A stretch of 64,000 bases of DNA. Origin: a virus. Lineage: Duplodnaviria; Heunggongvirae; Uroviricota; Caudoviricetes. Below the pieces are notes generated by a model that had not been told where the DNA came from, did no database searches, and saw only the letters and a program-made list of their open reading frames with translations. Position numbers and translations under genes: made by a program. Shown piece by piece: positions 26,880 through 55,747 of the stretch. The DNA lies in the IMG/VR virus record IMGVR_UViG_2706796742_000001, positions 1-64,000 of that record. One strand, given 5' to 3'. Every line of letters starts with the position of its first letter. The stretch's first letter is position 1.

Positions 26880-26956
26880 CTCTGTTTAGCTCAGCTTGGT
26901 AGAGCGTTCCGTTTGGGGCGGTAAGGCCGGAGGTTCAAGTCCTCCAACAGAGACCA
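26880..26956 (+). tRNA. tRNA-Pro (anticodon TGG)
   Basis: Hand-folded cloverleaf: acceptor CTCTGTT/AACAGAG, T-arm GGAGG-TTCAAGT-CCTCC, anticodon loop TTTGGGG, CCA encoded. Confidence 0.6.
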
Positions 26957-26963
26957 AATTAAT

Positions 26964-27040
26964 GTTCCAGTAGACAAAATGGTATAGTCACCACTCTTTC
27001 AAAGTGGATATTTGAGGGTTCAAATCCCTTCTGGAACGCC
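26964..27040 (+). tRNA. tRNA-Glu (anticodon TTC)
   Basis: Acceptor GTTCCAG/CTGGAAC, anticodon stem CCACT/AGTGG, loop CTTTCAA, T-arm GAGGG-TTCAAAT-CCCTT. Confidence 0.65.
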
Positions 27041-27044
27041 AGTT

Positions 27045-27122
27045 TTGACAGAAGACCAATTACAGCAAACTTAATCTTATACATCTGAAGGTAAATCGGA
27101 CAAAGAAGAGATTTGGTCTGGT
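27045..27122 (+). other. conserved inter-tRNA element E1
   Basis: 5' box CAGAAGACCAATTACAGCAAACTTAA and 3' TTTGGTCTGG able to pair with the 5' AGACCAAA; no T-loop. Confidence 0.5.
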
Positions 27123-27131
27123 CATTAAGAA

Positions 27132-27208
27132 TTGCGGGTATAGAGAAAGGGCGTCTCACATGTCTCATTAGCATGGTATCGGCAGGTTCGACTCCTGCAC
27201 CCGCCTCC
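27132..27208 (+). tRNA. tRNA with CAT anticodon (Met, initiator or Ile-lysidine type); 1-72 mismatch
   Basis: T-arm GCAGG-TTCGACT-CCTGC, anticodon stem CATGT/GCATG, loop CTCATTA; U1-C72 unpaired. Confidence 0.45.
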
Positions 27209-27211
27209 AAT

Positions 27212-27277
27212 TTTGCAGAAGACCGTATGCAGCAATAAACTACTTTTTGCGGATAAAAGAAAAAAACACGGTCTGGC
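27212..27277 (+). other. conserved inter-tRNA element E2
   Basis: CAGAAGACCGTATGCAGCAATAAACT ... CGGTCTGG. Confidence 0.5.
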
Positions 27278-27286
27278 AATGTATTA

Positions 27287-27363
27287 AGGTTAGGAAGCAC
27301 ATAAGGTATGTGCGGTCGCCTGTTAAGCGAATGGCACAGGGTTCGAATCCCTGACTAACCGCC
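27287..27363 (+). tRNA. tRNA-Asn (anticodon GTT)
   Basis: D-stem GCAC/GTGC, anticodon loop CTGTTAA, T-arm CAGGG-TTCGAAT-CCCTG. Confidence 0.65.
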
Positions 27364-27432
27364 AAATTTAGGAGAGAAGCGATTGCTCACCGATTTGTAA
27401 GGTGCAAGTCCTTAGCCTGAATAGAAATTAAA

Positions 27433-27520
27433 TGTGTCGTTATCCCGTAGATGGTAGCGGTGGGGACTGTAAATCCCTTGTCATTGAGACTCGGTAGGTT
27501 CGACTCCTACACGGCACACC
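27433..27520 (+). tRNA. tRNA-Tyr (anticodon GTA), long variable arm
   Basis: 88 nt; acceptor GTGTCGT/ACGGCAC, anticodon loop CTGTAAA, T-arm GTAGG-TTCGACT-CCTAC. Confidence 0.6.
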
Positions 27521-27525
27521 AATAA

Positions 27526-27603
27526 AGGCTATGTAGTTTAATAGGGTTAAAATACTCCCCTGTCACGGGAGATGATGTGAGTTCAAGTCTCATCGTAGCC
27601 GCC
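27526..27603 (+). tRNA. tRNA-Asp (anticodon GTC)
   Basis: Anticodon stem CTCCC/GGGAG, loop CTGTCAC, T-arm GTGAG-TTCAAGT-CTCAT. Confidence 0.6.
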
Positions 27604-27635
27604 AATTTTGAGAGGGCTATTTAGCCCCTCCCTTA

Positions 27636-27668
27636 AAGGGTTCTTACGAGTATCCTTTAAAGGGGCAG
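27636..27668 (+). other. conserved hairpin element, copy 1
   Basis: TTAAAGGGTTCTTACGAGTATCCTTTAA (7-bp stem, 14-nt loop). Confidence 0.45.
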
Positions 27669-27741
27669 AAGACCAAATTCAGCAAGTTACTTAAAATTTC
27701 AAGCCAATTCAATTTTGAAAAAATTTAAAACTTGGTCTGGC
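27662..27741 (+). other. conserved inter-tRNA element E3
   Basis: CAGAAGACCAAATTCAGCAAGTTACTTAA ... TTGGTCTGG. Confidence 0.5.
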
Positions 27742-27750
27742 TCAACAAAT

Positions 27751-27835
27751 TTACAGAAGACCGTTTACAGCAAAACTTAAACAATCTATTTCTCGGTAAA
27801 GAAAAGGCGAAGGTTCGATTCCCTCCACTTCTACC
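27751..27835 (+). other. conserved element E4 with tRNA-like 3' half
   Basis: CAGAAGACCGTTTACAGCAAAACTTAA then GAAGG-TTCGATT-CCCTC T-arm-like hairpin and CCA; only 5 acceptor pairs and no convincing D or anticodon arm. Confidence 0.4.
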
Positions 27836-27839
27836 AATA

Positions 27840-27916
27840 TGGTTCAGTCGCAGATAAGGTAATGCAAGGGTTTCATAAGCCCTATGAATGTGGGTTCGAA
27901 TCCCATCTGAACCTCC
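27840..27916 (+). tRNA. tRNA-Met (anticodon CAT)
   Basis: Acceptor GGTTCAG/CTGAACC, anticodon loop TTCATAA with three G-C pairs in stem, T-arm GTGGG-TTCGAAT-CCCAT. Confidence 0.6.
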
Positions 27917-27918
27917 AA

Positions 27919-27993
27919 TTGTGGGTTAGCATAAATGGTAATGCAAACGGCTGATAACCGTTAGAAGAGGGTTCGATACCCTCACCTACAACC
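27919..27993 (+). tRNA. tRNA-Ile (anticodon GAT)
   Basis: Anticodon stem AACGG/CCGTT, loop CTGATAA, T-arm GAGGG-TTCGATA-CCCTC. Confidence 0.65.
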
Positions 27994-28008
27994 AATTTTA
28001 ATAAAGTT

Positions 28009-28037
28009 GTTGACATTGAGATGTGACCACTTTATAG
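28009..28037 (+). promoter_or_regulatory. strong internal sigma70-like promoter in tRNA cluster
   Basis: TTGACA-N17-TATAGT preceded by A/T-rich tract. Confidence 0.6.
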
Positions 28038-28330
28038 TAACTAAAATACTTCATAATATGTATAATTCAAACACCAATACATGAGCATTAGACGTAATGC
28101 AATGTGGGGAAATTTGTTGTACATATTCTGAATAGTTTTCGTTGCGTAGCGTCTATTTTGCAAATTTAAAATAAATGCAAACGACAATGTTTTTCTGGCA
28201 GTAGCTTGATAGGCTAAACACCAGTGAGGTCTTCCAATCCCTCATCAAAGAATTTGGCGTACTAGCCCACGGTATGATTAATAAGGTGGGCATCTTTAAG
28301 GGCTTTCTAAGAGAGTCTTTAAAGATTAAT

Positions 28331-28407
28331 GCACCCTTAGTTCAACTGGACAGAACAAATGACTTCTAATCATTAGGTTACAGGTTCGAATCCTGTAGGG
28401 TGTGCCA
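28331..28407 (+). tRNA. tRNA-Arg (anticodon TCT)
   Basis: D-stem GTTC/GAAC, anticodon stem AATGA/TCATT, loop CTTCTAA, T-arm ACAGG-TTCGAAT-CCTGT. Confidence 0.7.
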
Positions 28408-28549
28408 AATAGTTAGCAGATTGCTTAGACGACCTTATCGGGTCTCCGTGTAGGGAGGTGGTCTGTATCTCATGTTTTCCAGAACATGTAAATAATCTGA
28501 GAAGGGGCTTTACAGTGTTGTGAAAATACGGTAAGCTTCGAATTATAGT

Positions 28550-28632
28550 GTGGGACGATGTTAAGACTCTAAGGCATGAGCAACGGCCTCCAAAACCGTT
28601 TCAAAGTGGTTCAACTCCTCCGTCCCATGCCA
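28550..28632 (+). tRNA. atypical tRNA-like gene, possibly tRNA-Trp (anticodon CCA) with expanded D region
   Basis: 7-bp acceptor GTGGGAC/GTCCCAT plus CCA; candidate loop CTCCAAA; T-arm weak; D region about 7 nt too long. Confidence 0.3.
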
Positions 28633-28645
28633 AAGTCTTATTAGG

Positions 28646-28733
28646 GGTAGGTAGCGGCTAATGGTAGCCAAACAGTCTTGAAAACTGTTGCCACTGTAGA
28701 GATACGGTGAGGGTTCGACTCCTTTACTTACCG
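28646..28733 (+). tRNA. tRNA-Ser (anticodon TGA), long variable arm
   Basis: Anticodon stem ACAGT/ACTGT, loop CTTGAAA, long variable arm, discriminator G; CCA not fully encoded. Confidence 0.6.
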
Positions 28734-28987
28734 CCTAATAAGATTTAGACCGTCATGCTCGCTCGCATTTTCGGTTTATCCCTCGTGTGTTGTCGTACAC
28801 AAGTAAAGCACCTAGTAGGTGTCACGGAGAAGAGATAATATCAAGCTCTCCAAAGGTTCTAGTCACCGGATTAAACAAGACTATGCAAAGACCTATTTAG
28901 GTCTTTTTAGAGAACTTCTAAGGTTATTACAGCTTGTTGTGGAACCTTGTTGCTTAGGTTCTTAGAAGTTCTCTAAAAAGATTTAAT

Positions 28988-29064
28988 GCACCTATAGCCC
29001 AACTGGTAGAGGCAGCAGACTTAGAATCTGCTCAGTGTGAGTTCGAATCTCTCTAGGTGTACCA
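28988..29064 (+). tRNA. tRNA with anticodon TAG (Leu by code) but short variable loop
   Basis: Leu-like D-arm GCC-CAACTGGTAGA-GGC, anticodon stem GCAGA/TCTGC, loop CTTAGAA, 5-nt variable loop, discriminator A. Confidence 0.45.
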
Positions 29065-29071
29065 AATTAAT

Positions 29072-29147
29072 GCAGGTGTAGCAAAATGGTTATGCGGCTG
29101 ACTCTTAATCAGTAAGACGATGGGTTCAATTCCCTCCACCTGTACCA
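29072..29147 (+). tRNA. tRNA-Lys (anticodon CTT)
   Basis: Anticodon stem GCTGA/TCAGT, loop CTCTTAA; T-arm has two mismatches. Confidence 0.5.
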
Positions 29148-29153
29148 GACATT

Positions 29154-29229
29154 GGGGATGTAGTTTACATGGTTAAAACATAAGTTTTGCAAACTTAAGT
29201 ACAGGGTTCAATTCCCTGCTTCTCCACCA
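29154..29229 (+). tRNA. tRNA-Ala (anticodon TGC)
   Basis: G3-U70 wobble pair in acceptor (Ala identity), D-stem GTTT/AAAC, loop TTTGCAA, T-arm CAGGG-TTCAATT-CCCTG. Confidence 0.7.
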
Positions 29230-29235
29230 ATTAGT

Positions 29236-29310
29236 GCATCCATAGTTTAAACGGGAAAATTACAGTCTTCCAAACTGAGGTTGAGGGTTCGATTCCCTCT
29301 GGATGCTCCA
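29236..29310 (+). tRNA. tRNA-Gly (anticodon TCC)
   Basis: Acceptor GCATCCA/TGGATGC, loop CTTCCAA, T-arm GAGGG-TTCGATT-CCCTC. Confidence 0.6.
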
Positions 29311-29317
29311 AATTAAT

Positions 29318-29394
29318 GCTGCTTTCGTATAATTGGCTATTACACATCCATTGTAAGGATGGAAATGCAGGTTCGAGTCCTGTGAGCAGCACCA
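29318..29394 (+). tRNA. tRNA-Thr (anticodon TGT)
   Basis: Anticodon stem CATCC/GGATG, loop ATTGTAA, T-arm GCAGG-TTCGAGT-CCTGT. Confidence 0.65.
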
Positions 29395-29489
29395 ATTCAG
29401 AGGTCAAGTGAAAGACCGCTGGTGTCAACTGAAGACCGTAACAAATTCCACGGAGTTGAGTTAGCGGCACAACTTCAGACCTCTTTCAC
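29395..29489 (+). other. divergent copy E5 of the inter-tRNA element
   Basis: CTGAAGACCGTAACAAATTCCA; flanking inverted repeat CAGAGGTC ... GACCTCT. Confidence 0.35.
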
Positions 29490-29564
29490 ACTCGCTTAGT
29501 TTATATGGTAAAACATCACCCTTACAAGATGAAGAAAAAGGTTCAAGTCCTTTAGTGAGTACCA
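29490..29564 (+). tRNA. tRNA-Val (anticodon TAC)
   Basis: D-stem GTTT/AAAC, loop CTTACAA, T-arm AAAGG-TTCAAGT-CCTTT; one C-A mismatch in anticodon stem. Confidence 0.55.
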
Positions 29565-29565
29565 T

Positions 29566-29643
29566 GTTCCAGTATCCCAATTGGCAGAGGATGCAAGCTC
29601 AAACCTTGTATTAGTGACGGTTCGAATCCGTCTTGGAACACCA
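29566..29643 (+). tRNA. tRNA with anticodon CAA (Leu by code) but short variable loop
   Basis: Leu-like D-arm TCC-CAATTGGCAGA-GGA, anticodon stem GCAAG/CTTGT, loop CTCAAAC, 6-nt variable loop, T-arm GACGG-TTCGAAT-CCGTC. Confidence 0.45.
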
Positions 29644-29659
29644 ATTTTAGGAGAACACT

Positions 29660-29767
29660 ATGAGTGATAAATCAATTGCAAAAAAGTTTATAGCGTCATT
29701 CAAAAATAGGCGTAAAAACAAAGATTGTGAAAATCTGTATGGTGTTCTTGTAGGTAAGCAGGATTAG
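29660..29767 (+). CDS. possible small basic protein (35 aa) inside the tRNA cluster
   Basis: AGGAG RBS 6 nt before ATG; ORF MSDKSIAKKFIASFKNRRKNKDCENLYGVLVGKQD; 3' end overlaps start of a tRNA. Confidence 0.25.
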   Translation: MSDKSIAKKFIASFKNRRKNKDCENLYGVLVGKQD

Positions 29768-29833
29768 TTCAAATGGATAGAGCAGCAGTCTACGAAGCTG
29801 TTAATAGGGGTTCGAATCCCTTATCCTGCGCCA
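29758..29833 (+). tRNA. tRNA-Arg (anticodon ACG)
   Basis: Acceptor GCAGGAT/ATCCTGC, loop CTACGAA, T-arm AGGGG-TTCGAAT-CCCTT. Confidence 0.65.
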
Positions 29834-29852
29834 ATTTAAAGAGGCTATTTAG

Positions 29853-30410
29853 ATGAGATATTTGAAGTATGCTTCATGGATTTTCCTAGCTTTGCTAGAA
29901 CCATTTGCAGCAATCCTAGCAGTCATCTTAGCACCTTTTGTAGTTCCATTCTACAGTGAGAAGAAAGGGCACTTACCTTTCGGCTTCAGATGGATGGAGA
30001 CATATGACAACCCAATTGATGGTGATAAAGGTCATGTTGAACGATGGGCTAAGATTAGAAAGGTTGGTAAGCTTGGTGTCTATATGCAGAGAGTCGGTTG
30101 GCTCTGGAGAAACAAAGCTTATAACTTCTCTTACCATGTGTTAGGAAGAGATGTAAAAGATGTTACTAAGTGGAAAGGTAATATCAATGTAAGTTCTGAC
30201 CCTGAAGATAATCAGACAGGTTATCTCCTAATGTGGAACAGCAATGCTTGGGGATTATTTGCTTTTGTACCATCAATTAAAGTCTTTGGTAAACAGTTTT
30301 ACTGGAGAATTTATATTGGATGGAAACTTAAAAGTGTTGTCCCAGAAGAAAGAGCATTCTCAAGGGAAAGAGTTATGTTGGCATTCTTTATTCATCCACT
30401 AAGAAAATAA
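29853..30410 (+). CDS. membrane protein embedded in tRNA cluster
   Basis: N-terminal hydrophobic stretch WIFLALLEPFAAILAVILAPFVVPF; RBS agagg; flanked by tRNAs. Confidence 0.5.
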   Translation: MRYLKYASWIFLALLEPFAAILAVILAPFVVPFYSEKKGHLPFGFRWMETYDNPIDGDKGHVERWAKIRKVGKLGVYMQRVGWLWRNKAYNFSYHVLGRDVKDVTKWKGNINVSSDPEDNQTGYLLMWNSNAWGLFAFVPSIKVFGKQFYWRIYIGWKLKSVVPEERAFSRERVMLAFFIHPLRK

Positions 30411-30418
30411 AGATTTAA

Positions 30419-30494
30419 AGGGGATTAGTTTACAAGGTTAAAACCTCGGTCTTTGAAATCGAAGAAGTTGGTTCAATTCCAACATCCCCCGCCA
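30419..30494 (+). tRNA. tRNA-Gln (anticodon TTG)
   Basis: D-stem GTTT/AAAC, loop CTTTGAA, T-arm GTTGG-TTCAATT-CCAAC; unpaired 1-72 position. Confidence 0.6.
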
Positions 30495-30496
30495 AT

Positions 30497-30575
30497 GCTC
30501 CATTACTCCAATTGGCAGAGAGGCCAGACTTAAAATCTGTGTTATGTATCGGTTCGAATCCGATATGGAGTACCA
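30497..30575 (+). tRNA. tRNA with anticodon TAA (Leu by code) but short variable loop
   Basis: Leu-like D-arm CTC-CAATTGGCAGA-GAG, loop CTTAAAA, 7-nt variable loop, T-arm ATCGG-TTCGAAT-CCGAT, discriminator A. Confidence 0.45.
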
Positions 30576-30580
30576 AATTT

Positions 30581-30656
30581 AGCGGTATAGCATAACTGGC
30601 AATGCAGCAGTCTCTGAAGCTGTCTTATTAAGGTTCAAATCCTTATGCCGCTGCCA
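30581..30656 (+). tRNA. tRNA-Gln (anticodon CTG)
   Basis: Anticodon stem GCAGT/GCTGT, loop CTCTGAA, T-arm TAAGG-TTCAAAT-CCTTA, weak A1-U72 pair. Confidence 0.6.
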
Positions 30657-30657
30657 C

Positions 30658-30690
30658 TTCTAAGGGTTCTTACGAGAGTCCTTAAATGTG
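30658..30690 (+). other. conserved hairpin element, copy 2
   Basis: CTAAGGGTTCTTACGAGAGTCCTTAAA, same loop core GGGTTCTTACGAG as copy 1. Confidence 0.45.
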
Positions 30691-30763
30691 GCCTTATCAT
30701 AAATGGTAATGACCCATGCTGTGAACATGGTCTATACGGGTTCAAATCCCGTAGGTCACCCCA
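30688..30763 (+). tRNA. tRNA-His (anticodon GTG)
   Basis: Anticodon stem CCATG/CATGG, loop CTGTGAA, T-arm ACGGG-TTCAAAT-CCCGT, discriminator C. Confidence 0.65.
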
Positions 30764-30768
30764 ATTTA

Positions 30769-30843
30769 TAGTCCAAGTAGCTTATATGGTTAAAGCGCGT
30801 GTCTGAAAAACATGAGAAGAGGGTTCAAATCCCACTGGACTAC
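30769..30843 (+). tRNA. tRNA-Phe (anticodon GAA)
   Basis: Acceptor TAGTCCA/TGGACTA, D-stem GCTT/AAGC, anticodon stem CGTGT/ACATG, loop CTGAAAA; two extra nt before D-stem. Confidence 0.5.
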
Positions 30844-30861
30844 CAATTTCAAAGGTGCTTA

Positions 30862-31596
30862 ATGAAAGAGATGACAGAACAAGGTAAGGAGATTTTTAAT
30901 CTCTTAAAAACCGGTAGAGGGTTTTCTAATCCCCTTATTACTGGTGCAGCAGTTCTCGGTGGAACCGTAGCTGCCTCTACATCACTTGTAAGCTCTATTA
31001 GCTCTGTAACAGACCCTACAATAAAGGATAAGCTTATTGCTGCTGGACTTACAACAGTTCTACTTAGCAGCTTTACAACGAGTCTGACAAGCACTACATC
31101 AACCACTAAAACACTGACAGATTACGGTCAAAAGTCCATTGATGAGTTTTCATCACGTATGCAGGTAGCAAAAGGATATTCTAATGCTATGGGTGCAGCA
31201 GGAGAGCAAGTCGGTTGTACACCTTTTAGTGGTATTATGGGTGTTGCTACAGAATATGGTCAAAAAGCTATTGACACAATTAACAGTGCACTAGATAGTG
31301 TTAACGGTGTGTTAAGTGACTTACAGGATGCTATTGACGAAGGTCTTGATACTATTTCTGATTTAGCTAACCAAGCTGTTAGCAAGATTAATGAAGGTAT
31401 CTCGAAGATTACAGCTTATGCAGACGAAGTTGTGCAGATGATTGAAGAAGAAGCTGCCCTTATTGCAGAGTACCTTAAAACGAATATCAATGGGTTCTTA
31501 GCAGGTATCTTACCAGACTGGTTTGATGATGCTTGTAAAACTGGTGTAATTGACACTATTGCAACACCAGAAATGAAGAACGCATTACAGAAATAA
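30862..31596 (+). CDS. hypothetical Ser/Thr-rich protein
   Basis: Start moved from track ATG 30799 (which overlaps a tRNA) to in-frame ATG at 30862 with aaagg RBS. Confidence 0.45.
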   Translation: MKEMTEQGKEIFNLLKTGRGFSNPLITGAAVLGGTVAASTSLVSSISSVTDPTIKDKLIAAGLTTVLLSSFTTSLTSTTSTTKTLTDYGQKSIDEFSSRMQVAKGYSNAMGAAGEQVGCTPFSGIMGVATEYGQKAIDTINSALDSVNGVLSDLQDAIDEGLDTISDLANQAVSKINEGISKITAYADEVVQMIEEEAALIAEYLKTNINGFLAGILPDWFDDACKTGVIDTIATPEMKNALQK

Positions 31597-31597
31597 T

Positions 31598-31690
31598 GGA
31601 AGATTAACCCTAAAAGGTAAGGGAGCAGTTTGCTAAACTGCCAGTAGCTGAGAAATCGGTGTACCAGTTCAAGTCTGGTATCTTCCTCCA
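31598..31690 (+). tRNA. tRNA-Ser (anticodon GCT), long variable arm
   Basis: 93 nt; acceptor GGAAGAT/ATCTTCC, anticodon stem GCAGT/ACTGC, loop TTGCTAA, T-arm ACCAG-TTCAAGT-CTGGT, CCA encoded. Confidence 0.55.
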
Positions 31691-31694
31691 ATTT

Positions 31695-31770
31695 GAATCC
31701 GTGACAGAAATGGCTATGTGCCTGTCTGCAAAACAGGTTTATAAGGGTTCGAGTCCCTTCGGATTCTCCA
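31695..31770 (+). tRNA. tRNA-Cys (anticodon GCA)
   Basis: Acceptor GAATCCG/CGGATTC, anticodon stem CCTGT/ACAGG, loop CTGCAAA, T-arm AAGGG-TTCGAGT-CCCTT, discriminator T. Confidence 0.65.
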
Positions 31771-43472: not shown

Positions 43473-51506
<8,034 letters not shown>

Positions 51507-51508
51507 TA

Positions 51509-52675
51509 ATGGCAGTAGGTGAAATTCAAATTAGTGCCTTGCCTCAAGCAGCCTTACCAATTGACCTTAGTGATATCTTCCATCTTAAGCAGGGTATTGA
51601 GGATAAGAGATGCACTCTTGAGCAACTACTTGCTCCACACTCAAGCCTAAGAAACAACCCTCATGGTGTTACTAAGACACAGATTGGTTTAGATAATGTT
51701 ATTAATGCTCTTCAGTTAGTTGCTGCAAATAACTTATCAGATGTTACTAATGTTGATGAGGCAAGAGCAAATCTACAGATTATGTCTTCAGAAGAGGTTA
51801 ATAACCTTGTTCAACAGCATATTAATGATAAGAGTAACCCACACAACACAACTAAGGCACAGGTTGGTTTAAGTAATGTTCAGAACTGGACAACATCTAA
51901 CCTTTATAATGAAGATGCAGATAAGTACGCTACAGCAAGAGCAGTAAATAACTTGTACAAGGCTGTTCAGGCTTCTTACCCTGTCGGTACATTACATCTC
52001 TCTATGAATCCTGCAAACCCTTCTACATATTTAATTTGTGGGGGCACTTGGGAGTTAGTATCAAAAGGGCGAGCATTAGTAGGTTACGGTGATAACTCAA
52101 GGCCAGTTGGTAGTAACTTTGGCTCTAGTAGTGTTAGTTTGTCTAGTAACAATTTACCATCACACAGTCATTCAATCTATCTAACTGGTGGTGGGCATAC
52201 ACATGGTGCTGCCATTGCTATTGATAGCTTTGATTATGGTACTAAGGGTACAAGCAGTTTCGATTATGGAACAAAAAACACTAATACTACAGGGAATCAC
52301 TCACACTCAGTCAGTGGTTCTACCAATACCACTGGTAACCACCAGCATAGTGTAGGTGGTCGTTACGGTGGTGACTCTATCGGTGGTAAACAGCGTGTTC
52401 AGGTATCAGGAACAAACCAGATTTCAAGTGTTGCTGGTGACCACTCCCATACTATTAGCGGCTCAACTAATACAGTTGGTGACCACTACCATAGTGTTGC
52501 AATTGGGGCTCATACACATACGGTTGGGATTGGTGCTCATACACATAAAGGCACAGTAACTTTGCAGTCATCTGAACATACTCACTCAGGTACTACGGGT
52601 GCTACTGGTGCTGGTCAAGCATTTAGTATTGAACAACCATCTTTTGTTGTTTATGTGTGGCAAAGAACCGCTTAA
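51509..52675 (+). CDS. tail fiber protein with His-rich HxH repeat C-terminal domain
   Basis: C-terminal repeats HSHS, GNHSHSVSG, GNHQHSVGG, GDHSHTISG, GDHYHSVAIGAHTHTVGIGAHTHKG; terminator downstream. Confidence 0.6.
   Translation: MAVGEIQISALPQAALPIDLSDIFHLKQGIEDKRCTLEQLLAPHSSLRNNPHGVTKTQIGLDNVINALQLVAANNLSDVTNVDEARANLQIMSSEEVNNLVQQHINDKSNPHNTTKAQVGLSNVQNWTTSNLYNEDADKYATARAVNNLYKAVQASYPVGTLHLSMNPANPSTYLICGGTWELVSKGRALVGYGDNSRPVGSNFGSSSVSLSSNNLPSHSHSIYLTGGGHTHGAAIAIDSFDYGTKGTSSFDYGTKNTNTTGNHSHSVSGSTNTTGNHQHSVGGRYGGDSIGGKQRVQVSGTNQISSVAGDHSHTISGSTNTVGDHYHSVAIGAHTHTVGIGAHTHKGTVTLQSSEHTHSGTTGATGAGQAFSIEQPSFVVYVWQRTA
52351..52419 (+). repeat. 69-bp near-identical repeat in tail fiber gene (copy 1)
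   Basis: TGTAGGTGGTCGTTACGGTGGTGACTCTATCGGTGGTAAACAGCGTGTTCAGGTATCAGGAACAAACCA matches 54800-54868 with one mismatch. Confidence 0.75.
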
Positions 52676-52684
52676 TTTCTTTAC

Positions 52685-52706
52685 AGGGGCTTTATAGCCC
52701 CTTTTA
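52685..52706 (+). terminator. hairpin terminator after first tail fiber gene
   Basis: AGGGGCTTTATAGCCCCT followed by TTT. Confidence 0.45.
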
Positions 52707-52721
52707 AGAGGAAAATTTATA

Positions 52722-55064
52722 ATGGTAGATTACAAGTTGAGTGAATTAAACTCAATCGACACAATCCGTTCAGACGACCTTCTTCATGTCAGAGTTAAAA
52801 AGAGACCTGAAATGCTGGGTGATGAAGACCGTCGAATGACCTATCAAGATTTCTTAGCATCTTTTAAACTTGAAAGATTTGTTCAGATTGCTGGTAGTAC
52901 TATGACTGGTGACTTAGGGATTGTTAAGTTACTTTATGGTGGTAAGTCAGTATTTGACCCAACAGGTTCTTCTGAGATTACTATTGGGGATGTTTTAAAG
53001 ACTTTTAAAATTAACGCAAATGGTCTTAAGCTAACCATTGCAGATGCTTCGAGGTCAGCAACTGTTTATCATACTCTTAATAAACCAAGCCCTAATGAAC
53101 TTGGGATGAGAACTAATGAAGAGAATGATGCAAGATATGCAAGGCTTGCTGTCACAAACACATTCTCTGGAACTCAGAACATTCAAGGTGATGTTAACTT
53201 ACTTCGCCTTAGAAACCAAAATGCAAACAATGCACAATATATTGAAGGTGTAAACCTAGATGGTTCAGCTAGATGGTTGGTTGGTATTAGTAAAAATGGC
53301 TCTGATGCAGTGCAACTGTACAATAATAAATATGACTCAGCTTTGACTATTGCAAGCAATGTCTCTGTTAATAAGTCTTTAGCAATCACTGGTCAAGTTC
53401 AACCATCAGATTTCTCTAACTTAGATGCTAGATACTTTACTCAGACAGCAGCTAATCAGAGATTTGCACAGTTAGCTGGCAATAACACTTTTAGTGGCTC
53501 GAACACATTTATTAACAGACTAAGTGTTTTCAAAAAAGATGGTGAGGCAATTAGGCTACAGAATAACAATGCTACACGGCCATTGTACATTATGGCGATT
53601 GATAGCGAAGGTGCCAAAAGATGGTACGTTGGTAATACTGATACAAGTGATAACGTAGTTCTAGAAAACTACAAAACTGGTGGAAAAATTACTGTAGGTA
53701 CAAGTGTTAATATCAATAAAACACTAACTGTAACTGGTCAAGTTCAACCTTCTGATTGGACTAATATTGATTCAAGATATATTCCGGTAGGAACTTTGAG
53801 TAATCTTGCTAAACTTAATGTTAAGAATACTTTTTCTCAAGGCCAGATTATCAATGCTGATGGGGAAGGTCTTAAGATTCAAGGTGTAAAAGATACTGGT
53901 GGATTGTTCTTGCAAGGTTGTACTTCTTCTGGTGCTAAGAAGTGGTTTATGGGTACTAATGATGCAGGTAACTTCACTATCAGGGAGATGGTGCTAGGCA
54001 CTGAACTGTCTCTTAGGGAGAACTATATTCAGTTTAATAAGAATGTGACAATCAATGGTCAAGTTCAACCTTCAGATTTCTCTAACTTAGATGCCAGATA
54101 CTACGTTAAATCGGCAACCGATGCGAAGTACATCTGGTCAGCAGTCAGGGAGACAGTAAGAGAGGAGGATGGTGGTGTAGCTTGGAATAAACCTTCAGGA
54201 ATCTATCTGTGGATGCGCAAGGGTGGTGGGTCAAACCGTTTAGTCTCGCACATGTTCGTTAATACGGGAGCATCAACACCTGCTGCACAATTGATGTTTG
54301 ATTATAGAAATGGTGGGATGTGGTACAGAACAGCCAGAGACGCACATGGTTTTGAGCAGGACTGGGCTAAGGTTTATACAGAGGCTCAGAAGCCAACCCC
54401 TTCAGAAATTGGTGCATACACTAAAGCTGAAACTGACCAGAAGATTGCAACAGCAATTACTAATTCTACAGACCTTAATAAAATCTATCCAGTAGGTATT
54501 GTAACGTGGTTTAACAGTAATGTTGACCCTAATACTGCACTTCCTGGATTAACTTGGACGTACCTGAACAATGGTGTTGGCAGAACTATTAGAATTGCAG
54601 CAGCAAATGGTTCAGATGTTGCTACAACTGGTGGTTCAGACTCTGTAACGTTATCTGTTGGTAACTTGCCTTCACACACTCATAGTTTCTCTGCGACTAC
54701 TTCATCATTTGACTATGGTACAAAGACCACTAACAGTACTGGTGCTCATACACACTCGGTCAGTGGTTCTACTAACAACACTGGTGCTCATACACACACT
54801 GTAGGTGGTCGTTACGGTGGTGACTCCATCGGTGGTAAACAGCGTGTTCAGGTATCAGGAACAAACCAAGTTTCAAGCTCTGCTGGTGCTCACGCTCACA
54901 CTGTGTCTGGTACTGCTGCTTCTGCTGGTGCTCATGCTCACACAGTAGGTATTGGTGCTCACAGCCACACAGTATCTGGTAACACAGGTGGTACAGGTTC
55001 TGGTTCAGCGTTTAGTGTTACTAATCAGTTCTACAAGTTAATGGCTTGGGTAAGGACTGCTTAA
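52722..55064 (+). CDS. long tail fiber protein, paralogous C-terminal His-rich domain
   Basis: 780-aa ORF; internal repeats GQVQPSDFSNLDARY (x3); C-terminus shares GGRYGGDSIGGKQRVQVSGTNQ and HxH motifs with upstream fiber. Confidence 0.6.
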   Translation: MVDYKLSELNSIDTIRSDDLLHVRVKKRPEMLGDEDRRMTYQDFLASFKLERFVQIAGSTMTGDLGIVKLLYGGKSVFDPTGSSEITIGDVLKTFKINANGLKLTIADASRSATVYHTLNKPSPNELGMRTNEENDARYARLAVTNTFSGTQNIQGDVNLLRLRNQNANNAQYIEGVNLDGSARWLVGISKNGSDAVQLYNNKYDSALTIASNVSVNKSLAITGQVQPSDFSNLDARYFTQTAANQRFAQLAGNNTFSGSNTFINRLSVFKKDGEAIRLQNNNATRPLYIMAIDSEGAKRWYVGNTDTSDNVVLENYKTGGKITVGTSVNINKTLTVTGQVQPSDWTNIDSRYIPVGTLSNLAKLNVKNTFSQGQIINADGEGLKIQGVKDTGGLFLQGCTSSGAKKWFMGTNDAGNFTIREMVLGTELSLRENYIQFNKNVTINGQVQPSDFSNLDARYYVKSATDAKYIWSAVRETVREEDGGVAWNKPSGIYLWMRKGGGSNRLVSHMFVNTGASTPAAQLMFDYRNGGMWYRTARDAHGFEQDWAKVYTEAQKPTPSEIGAYTKAETDQKIATAITNSTDLNKIYPVGIVTWFNSNVDPNTALPGLTWTYLNNGVGRTIRIAAANGSDVATTGGSDSVTLSVGNLPSHTHSFSATTSSFDYGTKTTNSTGAHTHSVSGSTNNTGAHTHTVGGRYGGDSIGGKQRVQVSGTNQVSSSAGAHAHTVSGTAASAGAHAHTVGIGAHSHTVSGNTGGTGSGSAFSVTNQFYKLMAWVRTA
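54800..54868 (+). repeat. 69-bp near-identical repeat in long tail fiber gene (copy 2)
   Basis: Same sequence as 52351-52419 with T to C at one position. Confidence 0.75.
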
Positions 55065-55143: not shown

Positions 55144-55338
55144 ATGCCTACAATCCTAGCAATTCTTCTAAAAAATCTAGGTAGCTTCTTCTGGAAACTC
55201 ATTTTATCCCTTCTAAGTGAATACATGATTGAGAAAGTGTTCTTTAGGCTTGCAAGATACCTTGCGAGTAAAACAGACACACCTATTGATGATGAGTTCG
55301 TAGATAACTTAGAAAAAGCTTTTAAGGGGGAGAAATAA
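55144..55338 (+). CDS. small membrane protein
   Basis: 64-aa ORF with hydrophobic N-terminus. Confidence 0.35.
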   Translation: MPTILAILLKNLGSFFWKLILSLLSEYMIEKVFFRLARYLASKTDTPIDDEFVDNLEKAFKGEK

Positions 55339-55710
55339 ATGAAGTGGCTAGAGGAAGCTTTTAAAAATAATATTGGTGCAATTGTAGTTGGTATTTTTAG
55401 TGTTATTGGGACATTTACCACGATGCAGGTTTCAAGTGGTAAACAAGAAGTGTCTGTCACAACGAAATTACAGCAGTTAGATAGTTATTCAAAAAGTAAC
55501 TACTCAGCTATTCGTGATTTACAATCTGACATGAGACTACTCCAGCTAGGGATGGAGAACCAGAAAGTCCAGTTAGAGAATGTTAAGGGTGAGAACGCAA
55601 AACTTACCAAAACCCTTGATAAATTCTCTGATAGCGTGAACAATCTGGCTCAATCAGTATCAGCCCTCCAAGCTATTACTGAGAAGAACACAAAGAATAC
55701 TGAAAAATAA
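55339..55710 (+). CDS. membrane-anchored coiled-coil protein
   Basis: TM segment IGAIVVGIFSVIGTF then heptad-like Gln/Leu-rich region. Confidence 0.4.
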   Translation: MKWLEEAFKNNIGAIVVGIFSVIGTFTTMQVSSGKQEVSVTTKLQQLDSYSKSNYSAIRDLQSDMRLLQLGMENQKVQLENVKGENAKLTKTLDKFSDSVNNLAQSVSALQAITEKNTKNTEK

Positions 55711-55716
55711 AATTTT

Positions 55717-55747
55717 AAGGCTCCCGTAAAAAGGAGCCTTTTTTTGT
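55717..55747. terminator. terminator between convergent late and replication blocks (possibly bidirectional)
   Basis: AAGGCTCC-CGTAAAAA-GGAGCCTT followed by TTTTTTTG; A-rich on other side. Confidence 0.55.

Follow-up and report, generated by a model that had tools for sequence, protein, structure and literature searches.

A DNA block common to the short and long tail fiber genes of a Felixounavirus and its probable origin by gene conversion

In Escherichia coli phage Bas63, cryo-electron microscopy has shown a short tail fiber (STF) on wedge 2A of the baseplate and a long tail fiber (LTF) on a platform; both fibers are trimers, and both end in a T4-gp37-like tip composed of collar, needle, and head (PMC12609058). 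Similarity of the fiber C-termini to T4 gp37 was reported in 2010 for gp76/gp77 of Felix O1 (PMC3185647) and in 2015 for gp74/gp75 of VpaE1 (PMC4690856). In T4 gp37, the stem comprises residues 882-931 and 960-1009, and the tip subdomain comprises residues 932-959 (PMC6957217). The HxH motifs of the T4 tip coordinate seven iron ions along the needle; in the structure, they are elements of the needle shaft, and receptor contact belongs to the small head between them (PMC12609058, PMC6957217). Here, we analyzed the tail fiber locus in 64,000 nucleotides (nt) of viral DNA (IMG/VR record IMGVR_UViG_2706796742_000001, positions 1 to 64,000; this whole stretch is called the window). As judged from its homologies, the locus encodes the short and long baseplate tail fibers of a Felix O1-like myophage of the genus Felixounavirus, and the two genes carry a nearly identical 69-bp block at the tip-coding end.

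The STF gene (51509..52675, plus strand, 388 amino acids (aa); phrog_2097 tail fiber, E=2.9e-137) is the homologue of Felix O1 gp76 and Bas63 gp26, with 71% identity to the latter over the full length (E=0) and near identity over aa 1-215. The LTF gene (52722..55064, plus strand, 780 aa; phrog_4277, E=0 over the full length) corresponds to Felix O1 gp77 and Bas63 gp27 (70% identity over the full length, E=0). An earlier sequence-only reading of this DNA did not recognize this known pair. Since the genes are homologues of Bas63 gp26/gp27, whose tips have been published, the core finding of two fibers with gp37-like tips and fiber mosaicism is established biology, and it leaves the basic picture unchanged. 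At the sequence level, the fiber alleles of the window are a new mosaic; no identical record was found for the locus, and the best match reached 90% coverage at 92% identity.

Compared with Bas63, the window has the same genes in the same order; both fibers have a gp37-like collar, an HxH needle, and a small head, and the LTF has repeated shaft domains. However, the two heads of Bas63 are mutually unrelated, whereas those of the window are one peptide and nearly one DNA sequence. The window STF also has nine HxH motifs, against seven reported for the Bas63 STF. The likeness to T4 gp37 residues 785-1026 (PDB 2XGF) consists of significant sequence homology, a gp10/gp12-related collar, and HxH strands around a central tip insert. 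In contrast, the head has 24 aa in the window and 28 aa in T4, with different sequences; the window fiber is a single protein directly on the baseplate, whereas that of T4 is a jointed fiber of four proteins; and the window fibers are not followed by a chaperone gene of the gp38/gp57A type.

The 69-bp block and the fiber heads

The sequence-only reading had described a 69-bp repeat with one mismatch, and the pairwise alignment of both genes found it neither shorter nor more divergent. Copy 1 (52351..52419, plus strand, STF V282-N303) and copy 2 (54800..54868, plus strand, LTF V694-N715, offset by 2449 nt) match at 68 of 69 bases, in exact runs of 27 and 41 nt parted by one synonymous TCT/TCC difference. 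The block lies inside a 266-nt homologous stretch of just 74% identity, and the aligned C-terminal 588 nt are 60% identical. When the mismatch positions were shuffled, a 69-nt run with at most one mismatch arose in none of 100,000 shuffles (P<=1e-5). All 22 residues fully encoded by the block are identical between the STF and LTF. At residues identical in both fibers, the same codon is used in 21 of 22 cases within the block and in 34 of 87 outside it (Fisher P=1.2e-6).

The block reaches from just after the last descending HxH motif (H278/H280 in the STF, H690/H692 in the LTF) to just before the first ascending one (H312/H314 and H724/H726, respectively), and it appears to code for practically the complete head in both fibers, VGGRYGGDSIGGKQRVQVSGTN. 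The head subdomain of the STF (aa 281-304; 52349..52420, plus strand) stands opposite T4 gp37 residues 932-959 in the phmmer alignment. The LTF head (aa 693-716; 54798..54869, plus strand) is in register with it and starts just past H690/H692, which aligns with the motif called head-proximal by the Bas63 authors. No STF segment varies more among 56 homologues than the head, which is 15% identical to the window, compared with 54-71% for the other segments; H278/H280 and H312/H314 on either side of it are nearly invariant (57 homologues). Thus, the segment that varies most in the genus is the one most alike between the two fiber genes of the window. In the literature searched, we found neither the coincidence of block and head nor a concerted evolution of the heads, and both, if correctly read, would be a modest addition.

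Origin of the shared block

The head inserts of 52 related loci that we collected are of many types unrelated to one another. In most of these loci, chiefly from E. coli phages, the STF and LTF heads differ and have no long common tract. The conversion tests use the 17 genomes with a GGxYGGDSIGGK head in both fibers, and the evidence consists of tract, haplotype, and permutation comparisons. In these genomes, exact STF/LTF tracts range from 14 to 141 nt and differ in their end points (locus L041, 141 nt; L051, 115; L003, 113; L043, 69; the window, 27 and 41). Per 69 nt, the block differs by 7.3 between STFs, by 7.9 between LTFs, and by 7.8 between the STF of one genome and the LTF of another; because these values are equal, the block carries no gene-specific signal. 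Within a genome, the STF-LTF difference is 5.0, and permutation of the STF/LTF pairing gave P=0.00025. In contrast, both flanks of the block stay gene-specific (19-25 versus 7-13 differences) and show no within-genome excess (P=0.93 and 0.23). Additionally, private haplotypes, each common to both fiber genes of its genome, occur in L003, L041, and L051.

Recent gene conversion, a non-reciprocal recombination between the tandem fiber genes, accounts best for the identity of the block DNA, both tips being of the gp37 type; we put the probability of this reading at roughly 0.75. The within-genome excess confined to the block, the private shared haplotypes, and the differing tract ends indicate that such conversion has been recurrent in related Salmonella phages. 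The sequence-only reading had seen in the repeat a substrate for recombination that could swap fiber tips. The conversion signature bears out the recombination, but its effect is to make the heads of one phage alike, not to swap different tips between its fibers. We found no description of STF/LTF gene conversion in Felixounavirus in the literature searched, a limited collection in which absence is not proof.

Several points weigh against gene conversion within the genome, or against the structural setting in which we place it. The STF block haplotype of the window also occurs in the LTF or STF of L034, L036, and L037; therefore, for the window, import from a co-infecting relative is not separable from copying within the genome. 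L001, L008, L036, L049, and L050 share the head type, yet their exact runs are just 14-32 nt, and since several same-head genomes show so little within-genome identity, homogenization would be episodic rather than constant. The 17 genomes are mutually related, so the independent conversion events number fewer than 17. Finally, an AlphaFold2 monomer of the full STF, built on a 57-sequence alignment, was poor (predicted local distance difference test score 64, predicted template modelling score 0.25, head residues below 50) and did not place the block; the trimeric fold and the distal position of the block rest on the sequence alignment with 2XGF and on the published Bas63 models.

The first of these points also suits an alternative in which each gene acquired the block separately from outside donors, that is, from co-infecting Felixounaviruses or from T4-like and P2-like Salmonella phages or prophages. 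Mosaicism pervades the locus at a fine scale, and tip cassettes are evidently mobile. The LTF tip of phage SP4 (L042) has 95.8% DNA identity over 237 nt to the fiber of Peduovirus STYP1 (L040), the proteins being identical over 73 aa, and the LTF tip of L008 has 95.3% identity over 279 nt to gp37 of Tequatrovirus GRNsp7. Nevertheless, the within-genome excess of similarity is found in the block only, with the flanks as a negative control, and the private shared haplotypes and genome-specific tract ends suggest local copying. As a full account of the block, separate acquisition is therefore unlikely. Separate acquisition and local copying are compatible with each other, and probably both take place.

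Another explanation dispenses with recombination and invokes strong purifying selection on the head peptide in both fibers together with codon bias. The identity of all 22 encoded residues and the presence of GGxYGGDSIGG in every block carrier examined agree with it, but the same-codon rate of 95% in the block against 39% outside does not. The 34 block sequences form 23 nucleotide haplotypes with many synonymous differences, so the codons are unconstrained, and private haplotypes in both genes of L003, L041, and L051 are impossible from peptide selection alone. We consider this explanation very improbable.

Even less credible is an assembly artefact, in which a short-read assembler merged the reads of two similar tips. 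An odd out-of-register join inside the block of vB_Si_35FD (MZ327261) could be such a mis-join. Against this, typical reads are longer than the tracts (41-141 nt), Felix O1 and many other genomes from independent sequencing show the same pattern with different boundaries, and the flanks in the window are cleanly gene-specific. That the block is kept for a nucleotide-level signal needed in both genes (RNA structure, promoter, or recoding site) can practically be dismissed, as both copies, with and without 20-nt flanks, folded no better than shuffled sequences (z -0.43 to +0.16), the fiber genes had no Rfam match (the sole hit was a chance-level IMES-5 at 55525-55627, with 26 bits where the threshold is 96), promoter and terminator scans gave sites at chance level and none inside the block, and related genomes vary freely at synonymous sites.

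The vB_Si_35FD record itself (MZ327261.1, L048:3563-4765) has a single fiber gene of 400 aa with the N-terminus of an STF and the C-terminus of an LTF. The junction is inside the block and out of register, with 40 nt of the block present twice, 56 nt apart, and no LTF shaft occurs elsewhere in the 85.8-kb record. The fused gene could stem from a genuine deletion between the repeats; otherwise, the repeats led the assembler to a false join.

We also considered whether the heads are shared because retracted fibers dock on the tail sheath, since the STF head of Bas63 sits between sheath domains. This was rejected as the main cause because the heads are hypervariable in the genus, whereas most other structural proteins differ by little more than 5% (Bas63 study, PMC12609058).

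With gene conversion as the preferred explanation, the following mechanism can be proposed. Each fiber tip would run from the collar down one strand of a long needle to a small head at its far end and return along a second strand. By homology, the HxH motifs on both needle strands would face the interior of the trimer and bind metal ions stacked in a column (iron in the case of T4), which would stiffen the needle; the HxH motifs themselves would make no receptor contact. The head would contact the receptor, and a change arising in one head could be copied by conversion to the other fiber. With identical heads, the STF and LTF probably recognize one and the same surface structure of Salmonella, for which the core of the lipopolysaccharide (LPS) is the likeliest candidate. 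LPS is the accepted receptor of Felix O1. In Salmonella, resistance against related Felixounaviruses has been mapped to rfaK and rfaB, two genes of the LPS core (PMC6669636), and host recognition by phages of the Felix O1 type is still called poorly understood (PMC8594841).

A broader proposal, to which we would give even odds, is that in Salmonella Felixounaviruses both heads evolve in concert by repeated conversion and always address one receptor, so that adaptive or escape mutations spread from one fiber to the other. The head of about 24 aa would then be a portable Salmonella-specific cassette, also present in T4-like and P2-like phages. No account of two fibers with specificities coupled in this way was found in the literature searched. 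Phages of the Felix O1 type serve in Salmonella diagnostics and biocontrol. Should this 24-residue head prove to be what determines Salmonella as the host on both fibers, host-range engineering and the prediction of hosts from sequence would have an obvious small target in it. Concerted fiber evolution, if true, would be a tidy example of a phage matching two attachment organs to one receptor.

The residue after GGK (STF 295 and LTF 707; 52391-52393 and 54840-54842 in the window) varies among phages and may be Q, H, P, or L. It usually matches between both fibers of a genome, mostly as Q/Q, as H/H in Felix O1, and as P/P in PMBT20. We regard this residue as a candidate receptor-contact position.

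Fiber architecture and mosaicism of the locus

Homology between the STF and LTF is detectable in the C-terminal ~185 aa alone, where they are 52% identical (E=3e-48). The earlier description of paralogous fibers with a common C-terminal module therefore applies to this region and not to the full lengths. The HxH motifs (nine in the STF, four before and five after the 24-aa insert; six in the LTF, three on either side) all lie within the last ~180 aa. The HxH peptides quoted in the sequence-only reading are present, GNHSHSVSG and GDHSHTISG in the STF and GAHTHTVGG in the LTF.

In the STF, the collar (aa 157-218; 51977..52162, plus strand) matches Pfam Gp10_C (E=2e-16, 61.6 bits against a cut-off of 27) and the T4 gp10 chains 5HX2/2FKK (E=4e-7). 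The descending needle strand (aa 219-280; 52163..52348, plus strand) has HxH motifs at aa 219, 230, 264, and 278, and the ascending strand (aa 305-362; 52421..52594, plus strand) has them at aa 312, 326, 335, 344, and 357; both align with the T4 gp37 stem.

The LTF has a shaft upstream of the tip. Three tandem repeats of ~107-115 aa (aa 126-238, 239-353, and 354-460; 53097..54101, plus strand) were delimited by Pfam gp37_trimer (three stretches, E=2.7e-63), a DNA repeat family, and unit alignment. The units close with GQVQPSD(F/W)(S/T)N(L/I)D(A/S)RY, coded at 53391-53435, 53736-53780, and 54057-54101. The three internal copies noted earlier correspond to these units of about 110 aa, but only two of the unit ends are exact (GQVQPSDFSNLDARY, aa 224-238 and 446-460), and the third is a variant (GQVQPSDWTNIDSRY, aa 339-353). 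A gp37_C domain follows (aa 482-579; 54165..54458, plus strand; Pfam E=2e-13), which also matches phage Mu tail fiber S (PDB 8JU3, E=1.5e-22). The LTF collar (aa 589-651; 54486..54674, plus strand) aligns with the STF collar from YPVG on, and its Pfam Gp10_C match is weak and under the family cut-off (E=0.0029, 19 bits). The descending needle strand (aa 652-692; 54675..54797, plus strand) has HxH motifs at aa 652, 676, and 690 and aligns with 2XGF. The ascending strand (aa 717-751; 54870..54974, plus strand) has them at aa 724, 738, and 747 and matches the Pfam Phage_fiber repeat (PF03335, E=3.1e-11). For this family, with a cut-off of 20 bits, the LTF scored 42.7 bits and the STF 19.5 bits, just below.

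The T4 gp37 tip structure (2XGF) matches STF aa 228-359 (E=2.1e-26) and LTF aa 639-758 (E=5.9e-15). This homology upholds the comparison of the HxH region with metal-binding receptor-binding tips, except that the HxH motifs belong to the needle shaft and receptor contact to the head. Metal binding by the STF and LTF needles and a trimeric fold would follow by analogy with T4.

Modular exchange of fiber tips among the fibers of P2, Mu, P1, T4, and lambda was reportedly described by Haggard-Ljungquist et al. in 1992, and the 'His boxes' of T-even fibers reportedly by Tetart et al. in 1998. The locus resembles that known exchange in having a variable receptor-binding segment between conserved Gly/His-rich motifs (FDYGTK..., GxHxH, GIGAHSHTV) and in the occurrence of nearly identical cassettes across Felixounavirus, Tequatrovirus, and Peduovirus fibers. 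It differs in that exchange also takes place between two fiber genes of one genome, making them alike. Tip replacement between phages uses a longer needle-plus-head cassette (237-279 nt, ~95% identity) bounded by conserved motifs; the tip swapping proposed earlier thus occurs between phages, but by way of this cassette and not the 69-bp block. The window LTF has 82% identity to GRNsp7 over 267 nt, and the block itself is found at 87-90% in Tequatrovirus GRNsp7, Peduovirus STYP1, Lv5cm, and PTE-Eco15, the last two being T4-size phages of ~168-170 kb.

Along the fiber locus, the best-matching relative switches every few hundred nt. The gp37_C segment of the LTF (54080-54420) is of the Bas63 type, with 94% identity to Bas63 and 98.5% to GLBO_sp7, and it is less than 80% identical in all loci sampled for the mosaic comparison and in 85 of 105 matching phage records. 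As far as these identities reveal, the LTF holds a clear mosaic junction within one gene. The same 54080-54420 segment represents the Mu-S-like domain type of E. coli phage Bas63 and a few Salmonella phages, here joined to a Salmonella-type tip.

Two E. coli Felixounaviruses from IMG/VR (L010, 87.4 kb, and L011, 88.4 kb) have an LTF head and needle, HSHYIEAWNGTG..GGSNTNAAGNHSHTFSF, that are almost the T4 gp37 tip. These near-T4 tips show tip exchange between Felixounavirus and the T-even phages of E. coli.

Downstream of the fibers, 55144-55710 of the window has only open reading frames (ORFs) of 64 and 123 aa with no significant Pfam match, and the relatives are alike in this. The Sf14 paper notes the same lack of a fiber chaperone. 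In the T4-like and P2-like phages with this head, a gene for tail-fiber assembly (a chaperone) directly follows the fiber gene (L039:4804-5355 and L040:4762-5340).

Host association and gene neighborhood

The block was found in 76 phage records, 70 of them Salmonella-named and most with two copies. Although 139 of the 281 phage records matching the fiber locus are Escherichia phages, just one Escherichia-named record has the block, and this 168-kb genome is probably a T4-like phage and not a Felixounavirus. Thus, the block hardly occurs outside Salmonella phages. A degenerate 32-nt pattern of the block had no match in genome_contigs (one genome per species) and matched only four Felixounavirus contigs in viral_contigs. 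A search of a large protein database with the 91-aa tip peptide returned just 15 short fragments and no useful host distribution. In GU169904.1 (Staphylococcus phage SA1), the block occurs twice at 98.6%, at ~86294-86362 and in a second place; the record looks chimeric or mislabelled because it holds Felixounavirus fiber genes under a Staphylococcus label.

The records matching the locus that were fetched are all classified as Felixounavirus, and the adjoining structural module is 97.8% identical to that of Salmonella phage vB Seyj1-1. The genes of the window are arranged as wedge 2, wedge 1, a 100-aa protein, STF, LTF, two small ORFs, and convergent thyA and frd. This order and the gene lengths equal those of Felix O1 and Bas63 in the ORF maps, in which 19 further annotated relatives were also compared. 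Baseplate wedge protein 2 (48875..50344, plus strand, 489 aa) matches Pfam Baseplate_J (E=2.3e-16) and phrog_6 and has the length of Bas63 wedge 2, gp23 (PMC12609058). Baseplate wedge protein 1 (50347..51204, plus strand, 285 aa) matches the baseplate protein family phrog_4017 (E=3.7e-175) and has the length of Bas63 wedge 1, gp24. The 100-aa protein (51204..51506, plus strand; phrog_4141, E=2.9e-62) lies where Bas63 has bas63_0025, with wedge 1 on one side and the STF on the other. By synteny only, its product is probably the long-fiber platform, in the position of Bas63 gp25.

A GC-rich hairpin with T-runs on both strands lies at 55717-55740, between the plus-strand fiber operon and the convergent minus-strand thyA-frd genes, and resembles a bidirectional terminator. 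Elsewhere in the window, 26880-31770 contains 25 tRNA genes, all on the plus strand, against 22 reported for Felix O1, and this cluster also holds two protein ORFs, at 29853-30410 (DUF7338) and 30799-31596 (DUF7217).

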